A DNA stretch of 60,908 nt from a virus. Taxonomy: Duplodnaviria; Heunggongvirae; Uroviricota; Caudoviricetes. The stretch lies in the IMG/VR virus record IMGVR_UViG_3300027734_000034; one strand, written 5' to 3'. Shown in pieces: positions 1,886 through 56,027 of this stretch. The position numbers and the translations under genes are program-made. The stretch's first letter is position 1; each line of letters starts with the position of its first letter. The notes beneath the pieces were generated by a model. It did not search any database and was not told where the DNA came from. It was given only the letters and a program-made list of their open reading frames with translations.

Positions 1886-7657
<5,772 letters not shown>

Positions 7658-7673
7658 TTATACCTTTTATTAT

Positions 7674-8954
7674 TTACCAAGGTGTCAATGCAATTCTCTG
7701 CCATATATCACTACCTACATAATATGTTGCGGTAGTAGCAGTTGAATTTGAACTGACTGCAACAGTTGTTCCGGCTACACCGTTTGTTCTTGATTGGCTA
7801 ACTGTAATGTTTGGGCTAGATACTGTCTTAATATAATAAACTGTATTTGATATTAATCCACCTATATTGCCGTTAAATATTATAGGTTCATTTACTGCAC
7901 TTGTTATACTAGACAAATTACCTGATAATGTAATGACATTACCGCTGCTAGTTGTGCTAGTAACACTAGTAACACATGCGGTAGCATTATATGAATCAGT
8001 AGCTACATATACATATGATACTGGATTAGCATACATAGTTCCAGAACCACCTGCTAAGTTTACATTTGCACCACCAATAGTTGTTGAAACAGTAAAATAT
8101 GTATTAGCAGACACATTTCTAACATAGTATGTAGTGCCTGCTGTGATATTAGCTTCAATACTAGTGCCAGTAAATATCACAGGCAAATCAGTATACAATT
8201 GAGTAGTATCACTAACACTAAAGTAATCTGCTGCGTTAGTAGTTGAAATTGTCAATTGATTAAATGATGGACCAACTGCCACATCGCCTGTTACATCACC
8301 TTGCAATCCAGTTGGTGGAACAATTCTTTGCTGTATTTGTGTGGCTGCTCTTGGTCTATTGATTGGGCTAATATATAATGTATTGCCACAATCAGTAGTA
8401 GTAATTAAGTAATTAAGTTGCGTTACCCCTGCAGGAGCAGTTACTGTAACTAATCCACCTATATTAGAGAAATTCTCAAGTGTGCTAATACCGTTGTTGT
8501 TAGCATTTGCTACTACAATATTACCGGAGAAAGTAATTACTGCTAATGAATTAGATACTGATATGTTTAATTGTACATTAGCTTGTGTTCCGGCAGGTGC
8601 CCAACTACCAAAGTTAAACGTAGTGTTTGATGCTACTGCACCATATTGAACATCACCTAAACTAGTATCAACTAACACAGTACCGGCTAATGCATTGCCC
8701 AAATTGTATGTAGTTGATCTAAAACTTCTAACACTTGCATTGCTAATAAGAGTATTAGCCATATCATTGTTTAATGTAGTTCCAGTTAACGCTTGTTTAA
8801 CTACTACTTTGTTTTGTAAATCTGTGATTTCAGTTCCAGCTGTGTTTAAGTTGGTAACGATAGATGCAAAGTTATCTCTGAACCCTTGACTGTTATTGTT
8901 AACACCAGGCACTGGATAGTTTACATTGATTGAATTTGTGTTTATGGTACTCAT
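7674..8954 (-). CDS. Virion structural protein (fibre/baseplate-associated)
   Basis: N-terminal YPVPGVNNNSQGFRDNF motif, beta-rich T/S/N composition, two G-L/I-xxxTxYYV modules, structural gene context. Confidence 0.6.
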   Translation of the reverse strand: MSTINTNSINVNYPVPGVNNNSQGFRDNFASIVTNLNTAGTEITDLQNKVVVKQALTGTTLNNDMANTLISNASVRSFRSTTYNLGNALAGTVLVDTSLGDVQYGAVASNTTFNFGSWAPAGTQANVQLNISVSNSLAVITFSGNIVVANANNNGISTLENFSNIGGLVTVTAPAGVTQLNYLITTTDCGNTLYISPINRPRAATQIQQRIVPPTGLQGDVTGDVAVGPSFNQLTISTTNAADYFSVSDTTQLYTDLPVIFTGTSIEANITAGTTYYVRNVSANTYFTVSTTIGGANVNLAGGSGTMYANPVSYVYVATDSYNATACVTSVTSTTSSGNVITLSGNLSSITSAVNEPIIFNGNIGGLISNTVYYIKTVSSPNITVSQSRTNGVAGTTVAVSSNSTATTATYYVGSDIWQRIALTPW

Positions 8955-39853: not shown

Positions 39854-40180
39854 TTAGACCCTGAAACTCTCACCACATCCACATCTATCACGCTCATTTG
39901 GATTAGTGAATTCAAACCCTTCATTAAGTCCATTACGGACATAATCTATATTCAATCCAGTTAAGTAGACTAGACTTTTCTCGTCTATTAATAAGATGAA
40001 ATCTTTTTGAGCAAAATTAGTTACACCAACTTCAGGCTCATACTTATCTACATACTCAAGCACATAGGCTAATCCAGAACATCCTGTCGTTTTGACACCT
40101 ATTCTGATACCCAACCCTTTGCCTCTTTTTGCAAGAGTTTGTTTTATTTTATTAGTTGCTTTGTCTGTGATAGCTATCAT
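39854..40180 (-). CDS. iscA: Iron-sulfur cluster assembly A-type carrier (IscA/HesB family)
   Basis: GVKTTGCSGLAY, IDY...GL.EGF.F.NPN....CGCGESF. Confidence 0.95.
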   Translation of the reverse strand: MIAITDKATNKIKQTLAKRGKGLGIRIGVKTTGCSGLAYVLEYVDKYEPEVGVTNFAQKDFILLIDEKSLVYLTGLNIDYVRNGLNEGFEFTNPNERDRCGCGESFRV

Positions 40181-44211: not shown

Positions 44212-45654
44212 TTATTTCTTTAATGAGTTTAACAAGGACTTTAATTTAGACCCTTGTGCATCTGCGTGTACTGTCCTAGTTAACGGTTCTAATGTAATTT
44301 CACCTGTAGTTTGATCAACCGTATAATCTGTAACTGTAGCTTGTGGTTTTAGTGTACTTATAATATCATTTGCACTAGGCTTTGGAGTATAACTCTGTTC
44401 TCCGTCAATTCCCGGGTCGCTAATACGCATAGTTTCAACATCATATTCTAAATCAATCTTCATACCAACACCAGTTGAACTACGACTTTTCATACATTGA
44501 ATCTGATATTTACCGCGCTCACGCATACTGCGGCTTGTGAAAATACCAAACACATTATCTGCTGTGTTAATCTTACTGATACCACCTGCAATGTGACTAT
44601 GATCAAACTCAATTTCATCAACCGCTGTACGATTCAATTGACTTGCTGTAACTAATAATACACCAAGTTCCTTCGCTAGATTACGCAATTCTTCTGCTAC
44701 ATACTTGTCTTTAATAAACTGGTCAGTTGGATTGACTTTGATACTGACTGGCATAACTAAATCTAAGTAATCAACCATAACAAAGTCAATCTTAATCCCA
44801 GTCTGAATCTGTACCTCTTTCAAATAAGCACGGATATCATTGACATTACTCTGAGCAGGTAAATTCTTAACACGATACTTACCAGACTTCTTGCCTGCCA
44901 TTTTAACTCTAAGTTCTGTTGTATCAATGTCTTTACGAATTGCTTTTGTACCCATCATGGTTAACATTGCATCAGTACGCAAACTTGTTAATTCTTCGCT
45001 CAATTCTAATGTAATGTAAACACCACTCATGCCCATCTGTAACCAGCTTAATGCAATGTTCATCATCACCAATGATTTACCTGAACCTGAACCACCTGCA
45101 AAGATATTCAACTCACCTCTACTCATGCCACCATAGAGAATCTTATCCATCTGTGGCCAGCCTGTACTTACTTGTCCACCGCTGTTAAAGTATTTGTTGA
45201 TGCGACCTTTAGGATCAGCAAAGTAATCTGTACCCATGTCTTTCTGTAAACTAATCTGTACCGCATCTTTGATTAGTTTTTCAACTGGTTCAAACTCACC
45301 CTTCTCCAACAAGTCTGCTGCTTTAAGAATTGCTCGTTCTAATTCTTGTCGTTTAGTAAATGATTCAAATTCATCAAAGAACCATTCATAATGTCCATCG
45401 TTCAATTCTGGAATAGGATCAATGTCTATTCCAGTTGTTGCTTTGATTTGTGTTGCATCTGGCAATACTCTATATTTGTCTGTGTGTGACTTGAACAACT
45501 CAGCCACTGGTCTAATAGAACGGTCAAAGTTTTCGCTATTCATTATGTTCATTACACGGGTATACAACTCCGCGTTTGTAACCATCATCCTCAGAAAGAG
45601 TTTCTGAACATCTGTTGTATATTCTAATTGTTTTTTAGTTTCCTGCTTTGCCAA
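44212..45654 (-). CDS. gp41: Replicative DnaB-like helicase (T4 gp41-like)
   Basis: Walker A AGGSGSGKS, YITLELSE, VDYLDL, TASQLNR, KSRSS. Confidence 0.92.
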   Translation of the reverse strand: MAKQETKKQLEYTTDVQKLFLRMMVTNAELYTRVMNIMNSENFDRSIRPVAELFKSHTDKYRVLPDATQIKATTGIDIDPIPELNDGHYEWFFDEFESFTKRQELERAILKAADLLEKGEFEPVEKLIKDAVQISLQKDMGTDYFADPKGRINKYFNSGGQVSTGWPQMDKILYGGMSRGELNIFAGGSGSGKSLVMMNIALSWLQMGMSGVYITLELSEELTSLRTDAMLTMMGTKAIRKDIDTTELRVKMAGKKSGKYRVKNLPAQSNVNDIRAYLKEVQIQTGIKIDFVMVDYLDLVMPVSIKVNPTDQFIKDKYVAEELRNLAKELGVLLVTASQLNRTAVDEIEFDHSHIAGGISKINTADNVFGIFTSRSMRERGKYQIQCMKSRSSTGVGMKIDLEYDVETMRISDPGIDGEQSYTPKPSANDIISTLKPQATVTDYTVDQTTGEITLEPLTRTVHADAQGSKLKSLLNSLKK

Positions 45655-46609
45655 TTTTCTTCCTCTGCATTTCTATTTTGATTTTACTATTTGTTGCACA
45701 CTGTAGTATACTTAATAGGGTAGGTAGCTTACCATATTTAACTACTGCATCATTTACATCTTTTACATCAACATCCCAATTAGGTAAGCTGACGCTATAA
45801 CCTAATTCCAATGCTTTATCACATAGTGCTAGTCCTGTCTTATCTCTATCTGGAACTAGTATCATTTGCTTGTTCAATGTACTAAGTAGCAATGCTTGGT
45901 CGCTACTAATGTCATTGTGCATCAATGCCACCCCATCAATACTTAGTGCATCAAATATACCCTCTGTAACAATACACACTTGCCATTCAGGCTTTTGCAT
46001 ATCAATATTAAACACATACCCGGGTTGTTGTTCGTTGATGTACTTAGGGATTTTGTTATCTAAGAACCTGCTCGTATGTCCTACAATCTTGTTCTTATAT
46101 GTGTAGGGTATTATAACCCTATTACCCATCCTACCCGGTTCATTTGGAGTTATCAAGAAAGGATATTCATTACTATCTATCTTCCTACTTTGCAGATATT
46201 CTACATACACTTTGTGCAATGGATTATCACTATCTACAATCTCGCCTTCGGGTAGTTTGTGGTCATTGAATTTGATTTTTATCTTTTGTTTCTTTGGCTG
46301 AGTAAAGTCTATCAAGTCTTTTTGTTGTAAACTTTCTAAACTCCAGCGTTTAACTTGATGGTCATCAATGCCAGACCATACTAATAGATTGCGAGTTTTT
46401 GTACTGATTGACCGACCCAATACAAAGTTACACTTGAACCCACAATTGAAACAATGCATAGACCAGTTAGTGCCATCAAACTTGATACCACCCCGCATCC
46501 GTTTGTCCTGTCTGTGACCAAAGTGGGTACAGCAGATAGCGTTAAAGCTAGTCCAACCTGAACTTGTTTGTTTCTTTTTACCGGGTAATATAGACAGGAT
46601 ATCAAACAT
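45635..46609 (-). CDS. gp61: DNA primase (T4 gp61-like; Zn ribbon plus TOPRIM)
   Basis: C..H...HCFNC zinc ribbon, TEGIFDA, DRDKTG, KDVND. Confidence 0.88.
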   Translation of the reverse strand: MFDILSILPGKKKQTSSGWTSFNAICCTHFGHRQDKRMRGGIKFDGTNWSMHCFNCGFKCNFVLGRSISTKTRNLLVWSGIDDHQVKRWSLESLQQKDLIDFTQPKKQKIKIKFNDHKLPEGEIVDSDNPLHKVYVEYLQSRKIDSNEYPFLITPNEPGRMGNRVIIPYTYKNKIVGHTSRFLDNKIPKYINEQQPGYVFNIDMQKPEWQVCIVTEGIFDALSIDGVALMHNDISSDQALLLSTLNKQMILVPDRDKTGLALCDKALELGYSVSLPNWDVDVKDVNDAVVKYGKLPTLLSILQCATNSKIKIEMQRKKIGKAGN

Positions 46610-46645: not shown

Positions 46646-47410
46646 TTATCTGGTCAATATATTTGTTACTGCGCCCGCATTGCTAGTGAATTGCATGCGG
46701 ATATAAGGATGAAATCCTTGTATAACATAACCCACTGTTTGAGTAACATTGGATACTTCTTCTGTAGTAACAATGTCATACCAATCATTGTCTACGATAC
46801 TGCTACCTTGAATTGTGGTGTTTCCATAGAATTCAATGTATTCAGTTTGGATAGTTAGTATTGGATTGTTATTTGTACTTAACACACTGGTAGTGTATGT
46901 CAAGCTGCTTCCGTTAGAGCCGTGACTGTTAGGGAATGCTTGACCAGTTGGAATAGTGATACTATATGATGGAACAAAGTTAGGTAATACACTATTAACT
47001 ATGTTCATCACCCCACGAGCACCTGCATTTTGATCTACAAATACAGGGAAATCAAATTCATTGACTGGAATTTCTAATGTGTAATAACATTTTTGAGCCT
47101 CAATATTCTCTAAGTCCGCTGCGTTTAAAAACAATGCACATATGCCAGTGGCAGCAAACTGTAAGGTCAATGCTTTTTGTACCAAAATTTCATTACCGGT
47201 ATAATTTAATATACGGCAAGTAATGCTTTTTCCAGTAATATCTATGGGTTTTTGTTCCTGATTAATGAACTGAAACTGGATTTGATTATCAACTCCCTTG
47301 TGTAAAGTTAATGGTTTTGCGTAGACTGGCATATATCTCCTCGGTGAATAGCCTGACAATAACACAACAATGTTGCGCTGGACGTAATAAAATACTGATG
47401 TTGAATACAC
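46646..47410 (-). CDS. Hypothetical protein, probably structural (BppU-like N-terminal pattern)
   Basis: LHKGVDNQIQFQFINQEQKPIDITG.SI.CRI; CTAAATA upstream; GTG start. Confidence 0.5.
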   Translation of the reverse strand: MYSTSVFYYVQRNIVVLLSGYSPRRYMPVYAKPLTLHKGVDNQIQFQFINQEQKPIDITGKSITCRILNYTGNEILVQKALTLQFAATGICALFLNAADLENIEAQKCYYTLEIPVNEFDFPVFVDQNAGARGVMNIVNSVLPNFVPSYSITIPTGQAFPNSHGSNGSSLTYTTSVLSTNNNPILTIQTEYIEFYGNTTIQGSSIVDNDWYDIVTTEEVSNVTQTVGYVIQGFHPYIRMQFTSNAGAVTNILTR

Positions 47411-47496: not shown

Positions 47497-47877
47497 ATGA
47501 TCCAAAACGAATTCTTTAACCGCCTGACTCAAAATCACCCGTTCATAACAGTGTGTTCATATGCCAACCAAGATTATGTTGGAATTGTTCAAAACCGTGA
47601 TGACATGGTTACCACTATCTATGACTATGGATCCATACTTGATAATGATGTGAAAGAGAAGTTTTTAGAACTTGGAGAAGTTTGGTGGTGGGAAAGTAAT
47701 AGATTAATCCCCATCAATTTGTTCTTAAAAAACGAATGGTCTATGTTTAGACCTTATCTCAGAACTTTCAATAACAAAAGTCTAGTAATTGTGCATGGTC
47801 CGATATGCAGCATGAACGAACTAAGTAAGCGCCGTAGTAAACGCCGTAGCATCACCCTCGTCAAAAGAATGCCCTAA
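47497..47877 (+). CDS. Hypothetical late protein
   Basis: Isolated plus-strand ORF preceded by GATAAATA (47472-47479); plausible composition. Confidence 0.65.
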   Translation: MIQNEFFNRLTQNHPFITVCSYANQDYVGIVQNRDDMVTTIYDYGSILDNDVKEKFLELGEVWWWESNRLIPINLFLKNEWSMFRPYLRTFNNKSLVIVHGPICSMNELSKRRSKRRSITLVKRMP

Positions 47878-48432
47878 TAGGTTCATGTGAACCACAACTA
47901 ATTGAGCATAAGCAATTGCATGTGCTTTTTTGAATACATATCCGTCAGTTCCCTTATCCCATACAGTTTTACTAATCTCAGACCATACTTTACCAATTAA
48001 ATGCTTCTTACCGGGACGAATAACTGCAAGAAACATAGCTAATCTTGGGATGCTATCTATGGGTTCTGGCATCTTCTCTAAGTTATAAAACTGATTATTC
48101 AGGTGAATCAGTTTCTCAACAAAACTTTTATCTTTCAGTTTACTCCAATCAGGTTCAACCATCAACTCGTTAAGATGTTGTTCATCTCTGACATTCTCAT
48201 ACACATGAACATTCAATAAGTCTAGTTTAAAATATCCACGTTTGTCTGCTATTGTATAATCAATACTTGCTATATCTAGCACTGGATCATAGGGGATAGG
48301 GGTGACATATACACCAGTGGCATGTTTACGAATAGGATTAACATTACGCATTGCCGCACTTGTATGCTTAATTAGTTCAAGCAATCTATCTCTTGAACCA
48401 AAGTCAATATCAATATCACTATCTATTCTCAT
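47821..48432 (-). CDS. dnaE: Miniature DNA polymerase III alpha-like (C-family) protein
   Basis: SDIDIDF, KHATGVYV, GYFKLDLL, LAVIRPG, YVFKKAHAIAYA: DnaE motifs in the correct order within 203 aa. Confidence 0.8.
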   Translation of the reverse strand: MRIDSDIDIDFGSRDRLLELIKHTSAAMRNVNPIRKHATGVYVTPIPYDPVLDIASIDYTIADKRGYFKLDLLNVHVYENVRDEQHLNELMVEPDWSKLKDKSFVEKLIHLNNQFYNLEKMPEPIDSIPRLAMFLAVIRPGKKHLIGKVWSEISKTVWDKGTDGYVFKKAHAIAYAQLVVVHMNLLGHSFDEGDATAFTTALT

Positions 48433-48977
48433 CTTGGTTGAATCAATCCTGCTTTAATTAATTTCATATATGCAGATTGAACAACAATAGCTTGTCGTTC
48501 AGCATCTTCTACCGCTTTGTGTGTCGTAACATGATTACCATCTTTAAGACTAACACCAGTGATATCAAATAATGTTCGGGTGTCCCTAACATTATAATAA
48601 GGCCAAGGTAGCATTTGACCAGTCTGTCTCCAAGCATGTTCTATTGCAACCACATCAAATGCTGATCCATGACTCCACGGTTTGCCATGATTTAAACAAA
48701 ATTTATACAATTGATACATTGCTTCTTTAAATGATACACGGTCTCTATCACCCATAGCTTCTTCAATAGCCTCTGGGTTTTGTTTACCCCACCATTCTAA
48801 TGTTGCTTCATTGATACTACGATTATAAATCTCTGTTTGATCCTCAATCGTAGGTCTAATCTCAATCTTGTCGATGATTCCTTGACCACGCGGATCAAAT
48901 AATACTGCACCAATTGTAAGAATCACACAATCTGGTGTTGTATCAAGTGATTCAATATCTATCATAATATCGGCCAT
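48429..48977 (-). CDS. DEDD-family 3'-5' exonuclease
   Basis: IMIDIESL, W.HG..FD, RDTRT, H.A.EDA; ATGA-coupled to mini-dnaE. Confidence 0.88.
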   Translation of the reverse strand: MADIMIDIESLDTTPDCVILTIGAVLFDPRGQGIIDKIEIRPTIEDQTEIYNRSINEATLEWWGKQNPEAIEEAMGDRDRVSFKEAMYQLYKFCLNHGKPWSHGSAFDVVAIEHAWRQTGQMLPWPYYNVRDTRTLFDITGVSLKDGNHVTTHKAVEDAERQAIVVQSAYMKLIKAGLIQPR

Positions 48978-48979
48978 AA

Positions 48980-49207
48980 CTATCCTTTTTTAGTTTTACT
49001 GTAAGCTGTTTCTACCCTTGGCATACCACATTTCGCACAATAGCATGTTGCATGGCTTACATGTCCCTTACTCCAGACTTCATCCCATATCTCCCAGTTA
49101 GTCCACTGATGCCAACCAAACCTACATTGCAGTGATTGGACCGGTTCTAGTTCCTTGAGTATTCTCCAAGTGTTTCGCTTCTCATGTTTTTCACGCTGTT
49201 CTATCAT
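48980..49207 (-). CDS. Small Cys/His (Zn-binding-like) protein
   Basis: CRFGWHQW...C.CAKCG; start 49207 from the ATGA overlap. Confidence 0.55.
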   Translation of the reverse strand: MIEQREKHEKRNTWRILKELEPVQSLQCRFGWHQWTNWEIWDEVWSKGHVSHATCYCAKCGMPRVETAYSKTKKG

Positions 49208-49479
49208 GTTTGCCACATTTCATACATTGTTATCAATCTATCATCCCATATCTCTATTGTAACACATCCTCCAGCTAAGGAGAAGTCCCAACCTTGGTGT
49301 CTTTCACCGAAATTTCTTCTCATCCATTTTACTATAACTGCTGGATCTTCTTTATGAAATAAACAATCTCTAAGATAGACTTTTTTATGTCCATCTTTGT
49401 AGTTGTTATCCCTGCATAAAGAGGTTGCGGTCTTGGGATATGTTACTGCGAATCCTTTTGTGTATGTTGTTATTGCCAT
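49204..49479 (-). CDS. Paralog array member 10 (divergent)
   Basis: IVKWMRRNFG...IEIWDDRLITMYEMW. Confidence 0.65.
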   Translation of the reverse strand: MAITTYTKGFAVTYPKTATSLCRDNNYKDGHKKVYLRDCLFHKEDPAVIVKWMRRNFGERHQGWDFSLAGGCVTIEIWDDRLITMYEMWQT

Positions 49480-49480
49480 A

Positions 49481-49711
49481 TTACCATCTCAATCTTGCTA
49501 AAATATAATCACGCTCATATCTAAATTTAATTTTAAATAACCAAACTTCATCATATACCCAAGTATACAAACAATGTCTATCTGGGTTTTGTATGTTTCT
49601 CAGTATCCAATCTACTAACTCTATCCTTTGTGGTATCGGGTCATGTTCATCAAGTTTAATAACTATTTCATGCCATCCTGGCTTGATGTTTTCCCAATCT
49701 GTATTTCTCAT
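49481..49711 (-). CDS. Paralog array member 9
   Basis: ELVDWILRNI...IKFRYERDYILARLRW. Confidence 0.7.
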   Translation of the reverse strand: MRNTDWENIKPGWHEIVIKLDEHDPIPQRIELVDWILRNIQNPDRHCLYTWVYDEVWLFKIKFRYERDYILARLRW

Positions 49712-49983
49712 TGAAACCTCAATAAGAATATCAAATACTTTTGTTCATCTACTATTTTGTAACCATCAGTAATGTTACCATTAACCATGTTCATCTTTAT
49801 ACCATACTTATTTTCAATGTAAGTTTCAAAATCATAGGCATCAAACTGTGTTTTATCTTCCATGAATTCTTTTCTAACTAATTTGAGCAGGTTCCAATAC
49901 TTCCATCTATTCTTTCTAAAATGAAGTTCAGGATCATCGTCATCATAATCTTGAAATGATTTTGTTATATTACTCACATCCAT
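49708..49983 (-). CDS. Paralog array member 8
   Basis: DFETYIENKYG...KIVDEQKYLIFLLRF. Confidence 0.65.
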   Translation of the reverse strand: MDVSNITKSFQDYDDDDPELHFRKNRWKYWNLLKLVRKEFMEDKTQFDAYDFETYIENKYGIKMNMVNGNITDGYKIVDEQKYLIFLLRFQ

Positions 49984-50180
49984 CTCAATGCAAAATAGGT
50001 GCTATATTCTTCTTTGTAGAAATTGAATATTGTATAACAATAAGCTGGTTCAGCAAATGATTCTGCTTTATGATATGCCCAATCAAAATCTACTTTATCT
50101 ACCCAACCATGTTGTTTCATCTGATGCACTATATCTATAATTTCAAGTACTGGTACGTTTGTAACAGTTATAGTTTTCAT
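49974..50180 (-). CDS. Paralog array member 7
   Basis: FNFYKEEYSTYFALRW. Confidence 0.7.
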   Translation of the reverse strand: MKTITVTNVPVLEIIDIVHQMKQHGWVDKVDFDWAYHKAESFAEPAYCYTIFNFYKEEYSTYFALRWM

Positions 50181-50422
50181 TCCCAGCGTAGTAAAAACAT
50201 AGTCAAATCTTCATCACGGGTAAGCATTATCTCGCACTGCTTAATGTTATCTACCCAACGATTACTTCCAGTTTCATCATCATAACCTGAATTGCCGTAA
50301 TTCTTTTTACACCATTTCTTGATTTCTTTGGTGTCAATATCATCTTGACCTTTCCAAGAGACTGTATGTATATTAACTTTGCTACCAAAATAGCGTTCTG
50401 TTTTGTGTGTAAATTTGCTCAT
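50177..50422 (-). CDS. Paralog array member 6
   Basis: EIKKWCKKNYG...IMLTRDEDLTMFLLRW; start 50422 from the ATGA overlap. Confidence 0.7.
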   Translation of the reverse strand: MSKFTHKTERYFGSKVNIHTVSWKGQDDIDTKEIKKWCKKNYGNSGYDDETGSNRWVDNIKQCEIMLTRDEDLTMFLLRWE

Positions 50423-50664
50423 GACCATCTCAATATAAACCATGCTGCCAATTTAGGATCTTTAACTGTGATAGTAGGAACATATCTAATAGATATGTCA
50501 CGCGGATCAAACGCTTCATGTGGTTGCGGATACATTCGCACACGCTCATAGAACCAGGCATAATTAGGGCTATCTTTAATATCAGTCATATTGCCTCTGC
50601 CCACATGTTCGTTTAACCATTCGGTACAACCTGCAGGCACCCCCTGTCTAAACTCTACTCTCAT
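50419..50664 (-). CDS. Paralog array member 5
   Basis: CTEWLNEHVG...ITVKDPKLAAWFILRW. Confidence 0.7.
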   Translation of the reverse strand: MRVEFRQGVPAGCTEWLNEHVGRGNMTDIKDSPNYAWFYERVRMYPQPHEAFDPRDISIRYVPTITVKDPKLAAWFILRWS

Positions 50665-50903
50665 GACCACACCAACGTAAAATGCGTGGCTATTTTGCCG
50701 TCATTGAAATGAAAGTCAACCTCTCCCCAGTACCACTCACGAATCCACCCTCTGTGGTAATGTTTTTCACACCAATGTGTCATATCATCTACCTTGTCAT
50801 CCCAATCATTAGTGAGCATATTTGGAGGTGCTTCAATGCTCACTGTGTATCGGTAATTGTTTTTAATATACCGTGTTGTTTTTCTACGCTGCTTACTGTT
50901 CAT
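50661..50903 (-). CDS. Paralog array member 4
   Basis: DMTHWCEKHY...FHFNDGKIATHFTLVW. Confidence 0.7.
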   Translation of the reverse strand: MNSKQRRKTTRYIKNNYRYTVSIEAPPNMLTNDWDDKVDDMTHWCEKHYHRGWIREWYWGEVDFHFNDGKIATHFTLVWS

Positions 50904-51181
50904 GACCATCTCAATATGAAAAAGGTTCTGTCTGCTGCATCACGGAACCAGTACTTACGATCACTTCCTACCCAACGACAATTAGGTATGCCCCAATGAC
51001 CGCTGCCAAATGTGTCTATCATCCAAACATTCATATCCAACCACTCTATTGCAGAGTAGTTCAATGGTTTGACCCAATAAGGATATTTAGGTTGATTGTC
51101 GGCATAACCAGTTTCAAGTCTTTTCATAGTGGTTAATTCAGATACCCATCTAGCTTCATTCATGGCGCGTTTCTTAATCAT
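50900..51181 (-). CDS. Paralog array member 3
   Basis: DMNVWMIDTFG...YWFRDAADRTFFILRW. Confidence 0.7.
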   Translation of the reverse strand: MIKKRAMNEARWVSELTTMKRLETGYADNQPKYPYWVKPLNYSAIEWLDMNVWMIDTFGSGHWGIPNCRWVGSDRKYWFRDAADRTFFILRWS

Positions 51182-51447
51182 AGCCACCTCAACAAGAACA
51201 TGGTTAGATCCTGTGGTCGTTTAAAAAACCACCTATCGTTGTAATAGCTATGTGTACCAGAACGGAAAGTATCTTCGCACCATTTAATTTGATCTTGCAT
51301 CTCACGGCTGAGAATATAAGCCGACGGGGTGCTATGAGTCAGGCGAACTTTGCGGTTACCGTAATCAATTATCAATACGGGTTCCTCTGTTGTCATGTTC
51401 CATGTTATCCCAGACCTGGGACGTTCGTACCGAATCTTGTGTGTCAT
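51178..51447 (-). CDS. Paralog array member 2
   Basis: DQIKWCEDTF...WFFKRPQDLTMFLLRW. Confidence 0.7.
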   Translation of the reverse strand: MTHKIRYERPRSGITWNMTTEEPVLIIDYGNRKVRLTHSTPSAYILSREMQDQIKWCEDTFRSGTHSYYNDRWFFKRPQDLTMFLLRWL

Positions 51448-51671
51448 AAGCAACTTAAATTAAAATGTATAGCATCACGCTCGTCATAGAAATAAAAATC
51501 CATATAATCTTCTGTGGCATGCGTGTAATATCTTTCACCGGGCAAGCCAAAGTGTTCTATCGCATAGCCACATACATCATTCCACTTATATGAAGTATCG
51601 CCTTTTACCCATGGTACGCGAACTCTAGTAGCCTGCCTCTTTGATTGTATCTTTGACTCTTTTTGTAACAT
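51444..51671 (-). CDS. Paralog array member 1 (start uncertain)
   Basis: DVCGYAIEHFG...FYFYDERDAIHFNL; the only ATG overlaps the upstream gene by 47 nt. Confidence 0.6.
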   Translation of the reverse strand: MLQKESKIQSKRQATRVRVPWVKGDTSYKWNDVCGYAIEHFGLPGERYYTHATEDYMDFYFYDERDAIHFNLSCL

Positions 51672-54995: not shown

Positions 54996-56027
54996 TCAAA
55001 GATTCTTCATGCAAGTTGACTTCGCAAGTTCATGCCAGTTGCCAGGGTTGATCTTTACCAAGTCAGCAATCTTCAACACCATACGCAGGCTGATCTCACG
55101 CAATTGATTGCAGTTGGCCCACATGTATTCCATGACACTTTCTTCCTGCTCTTTAGTAAAAGCATAGTCAACAAACAAGCCGGGGTCAGCATCACGATGC
55201 ACCTGCTTGATACGCATCATTTTATCACGTTCGGTGTTGATAGTCAAATCCAGAAAGTGACAACGACTTTGCAATGCATCCAAATGAGGTTGCATTTTAC
55301 CTGATTTTTTAGAATCAAACGATTTGTTTGTGATGAAGATGATAGAGCCGTGAAAGTTGAAAGTATTGGGCACTCCCTCTTCGCGTAGAATACGTGAATC
55401 TTTGTTGTAAGAGATACGCCGTGTCTTGCTAGAATCCAATGCACCTTTCAGGATGTTGACCGCATCTTGATCGTCCCAGATATCACAGTCATCAAACACC
55501 AACACGTTTTTAGCGTCAGAATATTTGTACAGTAATACGAACAAGCCGATAGCAGACATCGCGCCTTTGACAGTCTCAAAACGGATCTTGCGATCTGCAA
55601 TATGATCAAACATGCTAGCTTTTTCCATCTGCAATGTCACGCCGTGACTCTTGCCGACACCGGGAGGGCCTGTCACAATCATAGCACGGATATCACCGTT
55701 GATACATGCTTTTGACATCTCATCCAATACTGCAAAACGACCTGCGATACGGTCCATCGCTTCCTTATCAGTCTCGGTAGACACTTCTGCCTTTGCCTTG
55801 AATTCTACTGTATTGCCTACCACCGTTTCTCCATTCATGAATTGAATATCTTCAATGCTTCCGACATTGACACGGACCTGAGGTCCACCCACTGCAAACT
55901 GACCATCATTCTTAACAGTAACAAATCCACCCTTCTTACCAACTTGATAACCTTTGACTAGGGTGAACACTTCACCAGATACAGGGTTATTGCGATAAGA
56001 ACCAGAGAGAATGCGAATTGTTGACAT
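54996..56027 (-). CDS. AAA+ ATPase (SRC motif, clamp-loader-clade-like)
   Basis: GPPGVGKS, LVFDDCD, IIFITN, ALQSRC, ISLR. Confidence 0.85.
   Translation of the reverse strand: MSTIRILSGSYRNNPVSGEVFTLVKGYQVGKKGGFVTVKNDGQFAVGGPQVRVNVGSIEDIQFMNGETVVGNTVEFKAKAEVSTETDKEAMDRIAGRFAVLDEMSKACINGDIRAMIVTGPPGVGKSHGVTLQMEKASMFDHIADRKIRFETVKGAMSAIGLFVLLYKYSDAKNVLVFDDCDIWDDQDAVNILKGALDSSKTRRISYNKDSRILREEGVPNTFNFHGSIIFITNKSFDSKKSGKMQPHLDALQSRCHFLDLTINTERDKMMRIKQVHRDADPGLFVDYAFTKEQEESVMEYMWANCNQLREISLRMVLKIADLVKINPGNWHELAKSTCMKNL

Follow-up and report, generated by a model that had tools for sequence, protein, structure and literature searches.

Gene content of the locus

The window analyzed here, a stretch of 60,908 nucleotides, is part of a 171-kb virus contig (G000; CheckV completeness, 49%) from an uncultured giant phage. 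Pfam and PHROG matches on this contig reveal a T4-like group 2 context, with genes for UvsW, UvsX, SSB, DnaB, DnaG, and the tail sheath. The original prediction described a small C-family polymerase ORF joined to an exonuclease ORF, and we confirmed both reading frames (203 and 182 amino acids [aa]) together with their 4-nt ATGA overlap. The genes of the region are arranged as follows:

44212..45654 (-): DnaB-like replicative helicase, in the conserved block
45635..46609 (-): DnaG-type (Toprim) primase, in the conserved block
46646..47410 (-): conserved gene, 254 aa; RaK2 and Atu_ph07 have a gene annotated "virion structural protein" at this position
47497..47877 (+): conserved convergent gene, phrog_11637, 126 aa
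47821..48432 (-): C-terminal half (C-half) of a split minimal Pol III alpha, phrog_11778, 203 aa
48429..48977 (-): DexA/Rv2179c-like DEDDh 3'-5' exonuclease, PF16473, phrog_255, 182 aa
51625..54897 (-): upstream conserved block, comprising a UvsW-type helicase (495 aa) and genes of 166, 197, and 244 aa

The conserved proximity of primase and helicase genes is a weak indicator of what the C-half does, because the same block includes a gene annotated as a virion protein. In distant relatives the UvsW block directly precedes the C-half, and the exonuclease is missing there. In the window, the minus strand at 48980-51671 holds about 10 small ORFs (68 to 95 aa), many with an F-x-L-R-W-like motif at the end, and these resemble a set of tandem paralogs that was inserted between the exonuclease and the 244-aa gene. 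Upstream of uvsW is a 343-aa AAA-type ATPase (54996-56027, minus strand; phrog_1250) that is weakly similar to clamp loaders. A 108-aa ORF at 39854-40180 (minus strand) with GCSG and CGCGESF motifs matches the unannotated phrog_17776, and we take it to resemble IscA/HesB iron-sulfur assembly proteins.

The most constant neighbor of the C-half is the 126-aa phrog_11637 gene, whose 3' end overlaps that of the C-half by 57 nt. The two genes lie tail to tail at 69 of 74 close, 65 of 76 distant, and all 3 cultured loci. The 126-aa gene has a dN/dS of 0.049 and is without a match in Pfam or Atlas. Promoter and terminator scans gave signals at the level of shuffled sequence. Four contigs of 151 to 227 nt from relatives in one freshwater metatranscriptome fall on 47527-48722, short fragments from which neither strand nor transcription can be read.

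A conserved and intact gene for part of a C-family polymerase core

The DnaE motifs predicted in the 203-aa ORF are all present in order and map onto Escherichia coli DnaE: D6/D8/D10 correspond to D401/D403/D405, H37-A-T-G to H511-A-G-G, K69/D71 to K553/D555, R139-P-G to R639-P-G, and F167..H171..Y175 to F756..H760..Y764. Only 29 residues separate D8 from H37, compared to 108 in E. coli DnaE (the thumb is gone), and 28 separate R139 from F167, compared to 117 (most of the index finger is gone). Among 84 diverse homologs from a library clustered at 50% identity, every one keeps K69 and D71, with D6 and D8 in 83, H171 in 80, and Y165 in 58, a near-invariance of key residues which indicates that the motif match is not due to chance. 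Two family-specific lysines are also conserved (Lys142 in 76 and Lys168 in 77 of the 84). These homologs range from 177 to 233 aa, near-length homologs number at least 7,952, and the median pairwise dN/dS of the C-half against 57 close loci is 0.078. The ORF at 47821-48432 is therefore a real, selected gene encoding an intact protein. The claim that it is not a simple truncation holds, given its near-invariant aspartates, conserved length, and purifying selection; there is no sign of the aspartate decay or neutral evolution that would have spoken against it.

The predicted structure agrees with this assignment. In the proposed comparison with DnaE, an AF2 model of the C-half (pLDDT 93.5) gave a C-family fold, with PolC/DnaE structures as the top seven matches (Z 6.6 to 9.9) and the next, unrelated match at Z 3.6. 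The best match was PolC 3F2B (Z 9.9, rmsd 3.6, 196 residues aligned), and the matched region corresponds to E. coli DnaE 397-791. Foldseek returned only E values above 0.001, though its top rows were all Pol III, and single-sequence searches of Pfam and PDB sequences gave no matches. The C-half matches phrog_11778 (E 5e-55), which PHROGs annotates as DNA polymerase, and 96 cultured-phage records match the C-half, with RaK2, GAP32, PA5oct, Atu_ph07, and relatives among the matches listed. A Pol-beta-like palm with equivalents of D401/D403/D555 is present; the full replicase architecture, with PHP, thumb, clamp-binding, and OB regions in one chain, is absent from the 203-aa protein.

A distant gene probably encodes the missing part of the palm

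The 203-aa ORF is the C-half of a split minimal Pol III alpha and is missing that half of the palm which binds the nucleotide and bears the GRGS motif. The original prediction was right that the thumb, PHP, clamp-binding, and OB regions are gone but overlooked the loss of this N-terminal palm segment; its suggestion of a split enzyme, or one subunit of a multigene Pol III, was borne out, the partner being a distant N-half gene. The N-half (phrog_11127, about 170 aa, 92 phage records) aligns to DnaE 320-393 (probability, 95%), immediately before the region covered by the C-half, carries an invariant GVGRGSS motif, and has a dN/dS of 0.069. Stand-alone N-half genes lie 42 to 53 kb downstream of the C-half in the close relatives G001, G002, and G004, and N-half, C-half, and a family B polymerase (PolB) occur together in 3 of 3 cultured genomes and in both of the ≥90%-complete IMG/VR genomes tested.

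A search of the genome for complementary DnaE pieces or a family B polymerase, as had been suggested, recovered the PolB but not the N-half, which was not found on the 49%-complete contig with a GRGS scan, PF07733, phrog_11127, or the N-terminal part of a natural fusion as queries; PF07733 itself had no match there. The contig breaks off within a phoH-like gene, which in G001 and G002 is separated from the N-half by about 2.3 kb. Since 12 of 13 related contigs that reach at least 2.9 kb beyond the equivalent of the contig end carry the N-half, 2.3 to 4.7 kb on, its absence is best explained by an assembly break, and the N-half gene of this genome is probably located shortly beyond that break. 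Gene order differs in another stretch: in G001, G002, and G004 the homolog of a 426-aa gene (window 7674-8954) runs directly into the N-half block, while here (window 1886-8954; G000 1-37790) this gene is followed by long fiber-like genes and then by other sequence of about 37 kb, reflecting a rearrangement, a large insertion, or an assembly join.

The two halves are predicted to form a heterodimer. When the C-half of the window was modeled together with the N-half of G001, the complex scored 0.92, compared to 0.04 for the best control; of 80 solved complexes 58 attained the mark used, as did 2 of 110 mismatched pairs. Model runs share at least 92% of contacts, the partner has a pLDDT of at least 90, and the GRGS strand packs against C-half residues 9-11 and 168-181. 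Because Mg and ATP were included in the model, and because the two parts of a split gene can score well by resembling solved DnaE, this result supports binding rather than demonstrating it. In P0165 (375 aa; L090 1066-2193), phrog_11127 and phrog_11778 are naturally fused in the order of DnaE, with a linker 3 residues longer than that of E. coli DnaE; the fusion comes from a single 2.4-kb contig and might be the product of chimeric assembly, but if real it offers a handy single-chain construct. A single-sequence fold of P0165 reached a pLDDT of 36 and gave no usable model.

Active site and predicted role of the split enzyme

Residue roles were taken from an E. coli Pol III ternary cryo-EM structure (10.64898/2026.06.29.735100) and from PMC8485763. 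In the E. coli enzyme K553 contacts the primer phosphate, R639-P640 contact the templating base, and Y754 stacks on the dNTP, while the R362A substitution kills activity and R390A lowers efficiency 27-fold (10.64898/2026.06.29.735100); H760 is the ribonucleotide gate (10.64898/2026.06.29.735100; PMC8485763). The split pair retains the R362-G-S motif, the three aspartates, K553, R639-P640, Y754 (Y165), and H760 (H171), which argues for templated DNA synthesis. The lack of thumb, clamp-binding, PHP, and OB regions argues for a distributive enzyme without editing. The triphosphate site differs in other respects: 115 of 119 N-halves have Glu at the position of Arg390, the R396 position falls at the split point, and the R709/R710/K714/K715 stretch is deleted. 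We found no earlier report of this Arg390-to-Glu change. Lys142 and Lys168 may compensate for the lost basic residues near the dNTP.

The genome also encodes a full PolB (901 aa, with its own 3'-5' exonuclease domain; G000 146203-148908), and the split mini Pol III is therefore an accessory enzyme and not the replicase, contrary to the notion of a minimal replicase. Beside the PolB gene, beyond the window (G000 136797-145035; L250), are genes for GTP cyclohydrolase I (FolE), a PTPS/QueD-like protein, two radical-SAM proteins, and a glycosyltransferase-like protein, together with a 531-aa gene that has no Pfam match; this cluster is a possible 7-deazaguanine DNA-modification pathway.

We infer the catalytic activity and biological role of the split mini Pol III from these features; no biochemical or experimental study of it was found in the literature searched. 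The enzyme is probably an accessory distributive DNA polymerase, with about equal weight on primer extension after primase and on synthesis at gaps or D-loops during recombination and repair. The C-half would bind the N-half encoded tens of kilobases away, and the pair would rebuild a Pol-beta-fold active site, with the N-half supplying the R-G-S nucleotide-binding motif and the C-half supplying the three metal-binding aspartates, the primer-binding lysine, the template-contacting RPG, the base-stacking Tyr165, and the His171 steric gate. Such an enzyme would incorporate a few templated deoxynucleotides each time it binds, with no proofreading, and would help the family B replicase. Most likely it would do so either by extending short primase primers before handoff or, in recombination and repair of the UvsX/UvsW type, by gap filling and extension of invaded 3' ends.

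The changes at the triphosphate site leave some room for a second reading, to which we give a minor share of the probability, in which the Pol III fold is kept for another nucleotidyl transfer (end-tailing, incorporation of modified nucleotides, or production of a nucleotide signal). The presence of a PolB replicase would free the split enzyme for a new role, genes for FolE, QueD-like, and radical-SAM proteins are found in the genome, and a site that has exchanged R390 for Glu, lost R396 and the R709/R710 finger, gained the family-specific Lys142 and Lys168, and dispensed with the thumb would conceivably, though not probably, mark repurposing beyond ordinary DNA synthesis, toward modified nucleotides, end-tailing, or priming. 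Retention of the equivalents of K553, R639-P640, Y754, H760, and R362-G-S weighs against it, these being the residues of templated synthesis.

The upstream exonuclease

The 182-aa neighbor was predicted to be a DEDD exonuclease of the proofreading type. It does possess DEDDh residues (D7-x-E9, D108, H154..D159) and the ATGA overlap, but its affinities are DexA/Rv2179c-like rather than DnaQ-like: the sole Pfam match is PF16473, the PHROG match is phrog_255, and the best solved relative is 8KEL (E 6e-5), which we take from its sequence to be T4 DexA. DexA is a host-DNA-scavenging nuclease that aids intron homing (PMC12153337). Neither a DnaQ-family sequence nor a constant polymerase partnership was found, with PF16473 as the only Pfam match and linkage that is lineage specific. 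The ATGA overlap is itself a common arrangement here, since 25 of the 145 codirectional neighbor junctions of the genome have 4-nt overlaps.

These observations make it quite unlikely that the exonuclease is a dedicated proofreading subunit of a three-part mini Pol III, even within the freshwater lineage. At loci of ≥79% identity the two genes keep close company (abutting in 45 of 55 and 305 to 389 bp apart in the other 10, hence within 400 bp in all), and the exonuclease is under purifying selection (dN/dS, 0.13). However, it is missing from all 74 more distant and all 3 cultured loci, has no match in Paride or Atu_ph07, and lies about 48 kb from the C-half in G007 and G008. Its divergence tracks that of the C-half poorly (Spearman 0.13, compared to 0.55 to 0.69 for three other neighbors, a descriptive comparison of nonindependent pairs), and the thumb and PHP, which engage epsilon in E. 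coli, are missing from the split pair. There is thus no support for a coupled proofreading exonuclease as a feature of the family, and a search for longer proteins, which spanned 406 to 2,000 aa, gave a weak indication in the same direction by returning no exonuclease fusion. This lineage-specific neighbor is most likely an inserted accessory nuclease; the 126-aa phrog_11637 protein is a better candidate partner for the C-half. Across L003-L082 the identity of the exonuclease to that of the window falls into two groups (about 63 to 71% and 79 to 99%), independent of C-half identity, which suggests allele exchange by recombination.

Although the three catalytic aspartates share one chain and primase and helicase genes are nearby, there is very little probability that the 203-aa ORF encodes a minimal replicase able to work alone, or that it is a dnaE in decay or cut short, given the missing GRGS motif (R362A abolishes E. 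coli activity), the PolB, the homolog lengths of 177 to 233 aa, the dN/dS of 0.078, and a search for proteins of 406 to 2,000 aa that gave only distant DnaE-family proteins.

Significance

The split mini Pol III was already described from sequence in 2021, and the gene itself is no news. Its interest lies in a thumb-less, two-chain C-family core of about 370 aa that is under strong selection alongside a full PolB, and cultured phages (Paride, RaK2, and PBECO4) make it testable. If active, it would set the minimum size of a functioning Pol III core and would show a reason for the presence of two polymerase families in group 2.2 phages.

Comparison with known systems

The 182-aa exonuclease resembles the T4 DexA/Rv2179c DEDDh exonucleases (PF16473, phrog_255, 8KEL) in keeping the DEDDh residues, but it is distant from T4 DexA (E 6e-5) and shorter (182 versus 227 aa). 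The split pair shares with DnaE/PolC (E. coli Pol III alpha and Geobacillus kaustophilus PolC 3F2B) the fold, the three aspartates, K553, RPG, and the Y754/F756/H760/Y764 finger motif. Unlike these enzymes it consists of two chains totaling about 370 aa, compared to 1160, is without PHP, thumb, clamp-binding, OB, and tau-binding parts, has Glu in place of R390, and is missing R396 and the R709/R710 finger.

The closest counterpart is the system described by Iyer et al. in 2021, who reported a minimal Pol III alpha split over two distant genes in group 2.2 jumbo phages like RaK2, PA5oct, and Atu_ph07, with an N-terminal protein that binds NTP, a C-terminal protein that binds Mg and template, and an accompanying family B polymerase, and who suggested that the enzyme acts on one strand or in repair (PMC7824862). 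Its members include RaK2 gp411, Paride_0017, and Atu_ph07 gp074 (PHROG 11778 for the C-half and 11127 for the N-half). The locus studied here agrees with that system in protein family, size, split point, PolB co-occurrence, and the block running from uvsW through the C-half and the convergent gene to primase and helicase, and it differs in the DexA-like exonuclease and the roughly 10 small ORFs inserted upstream.
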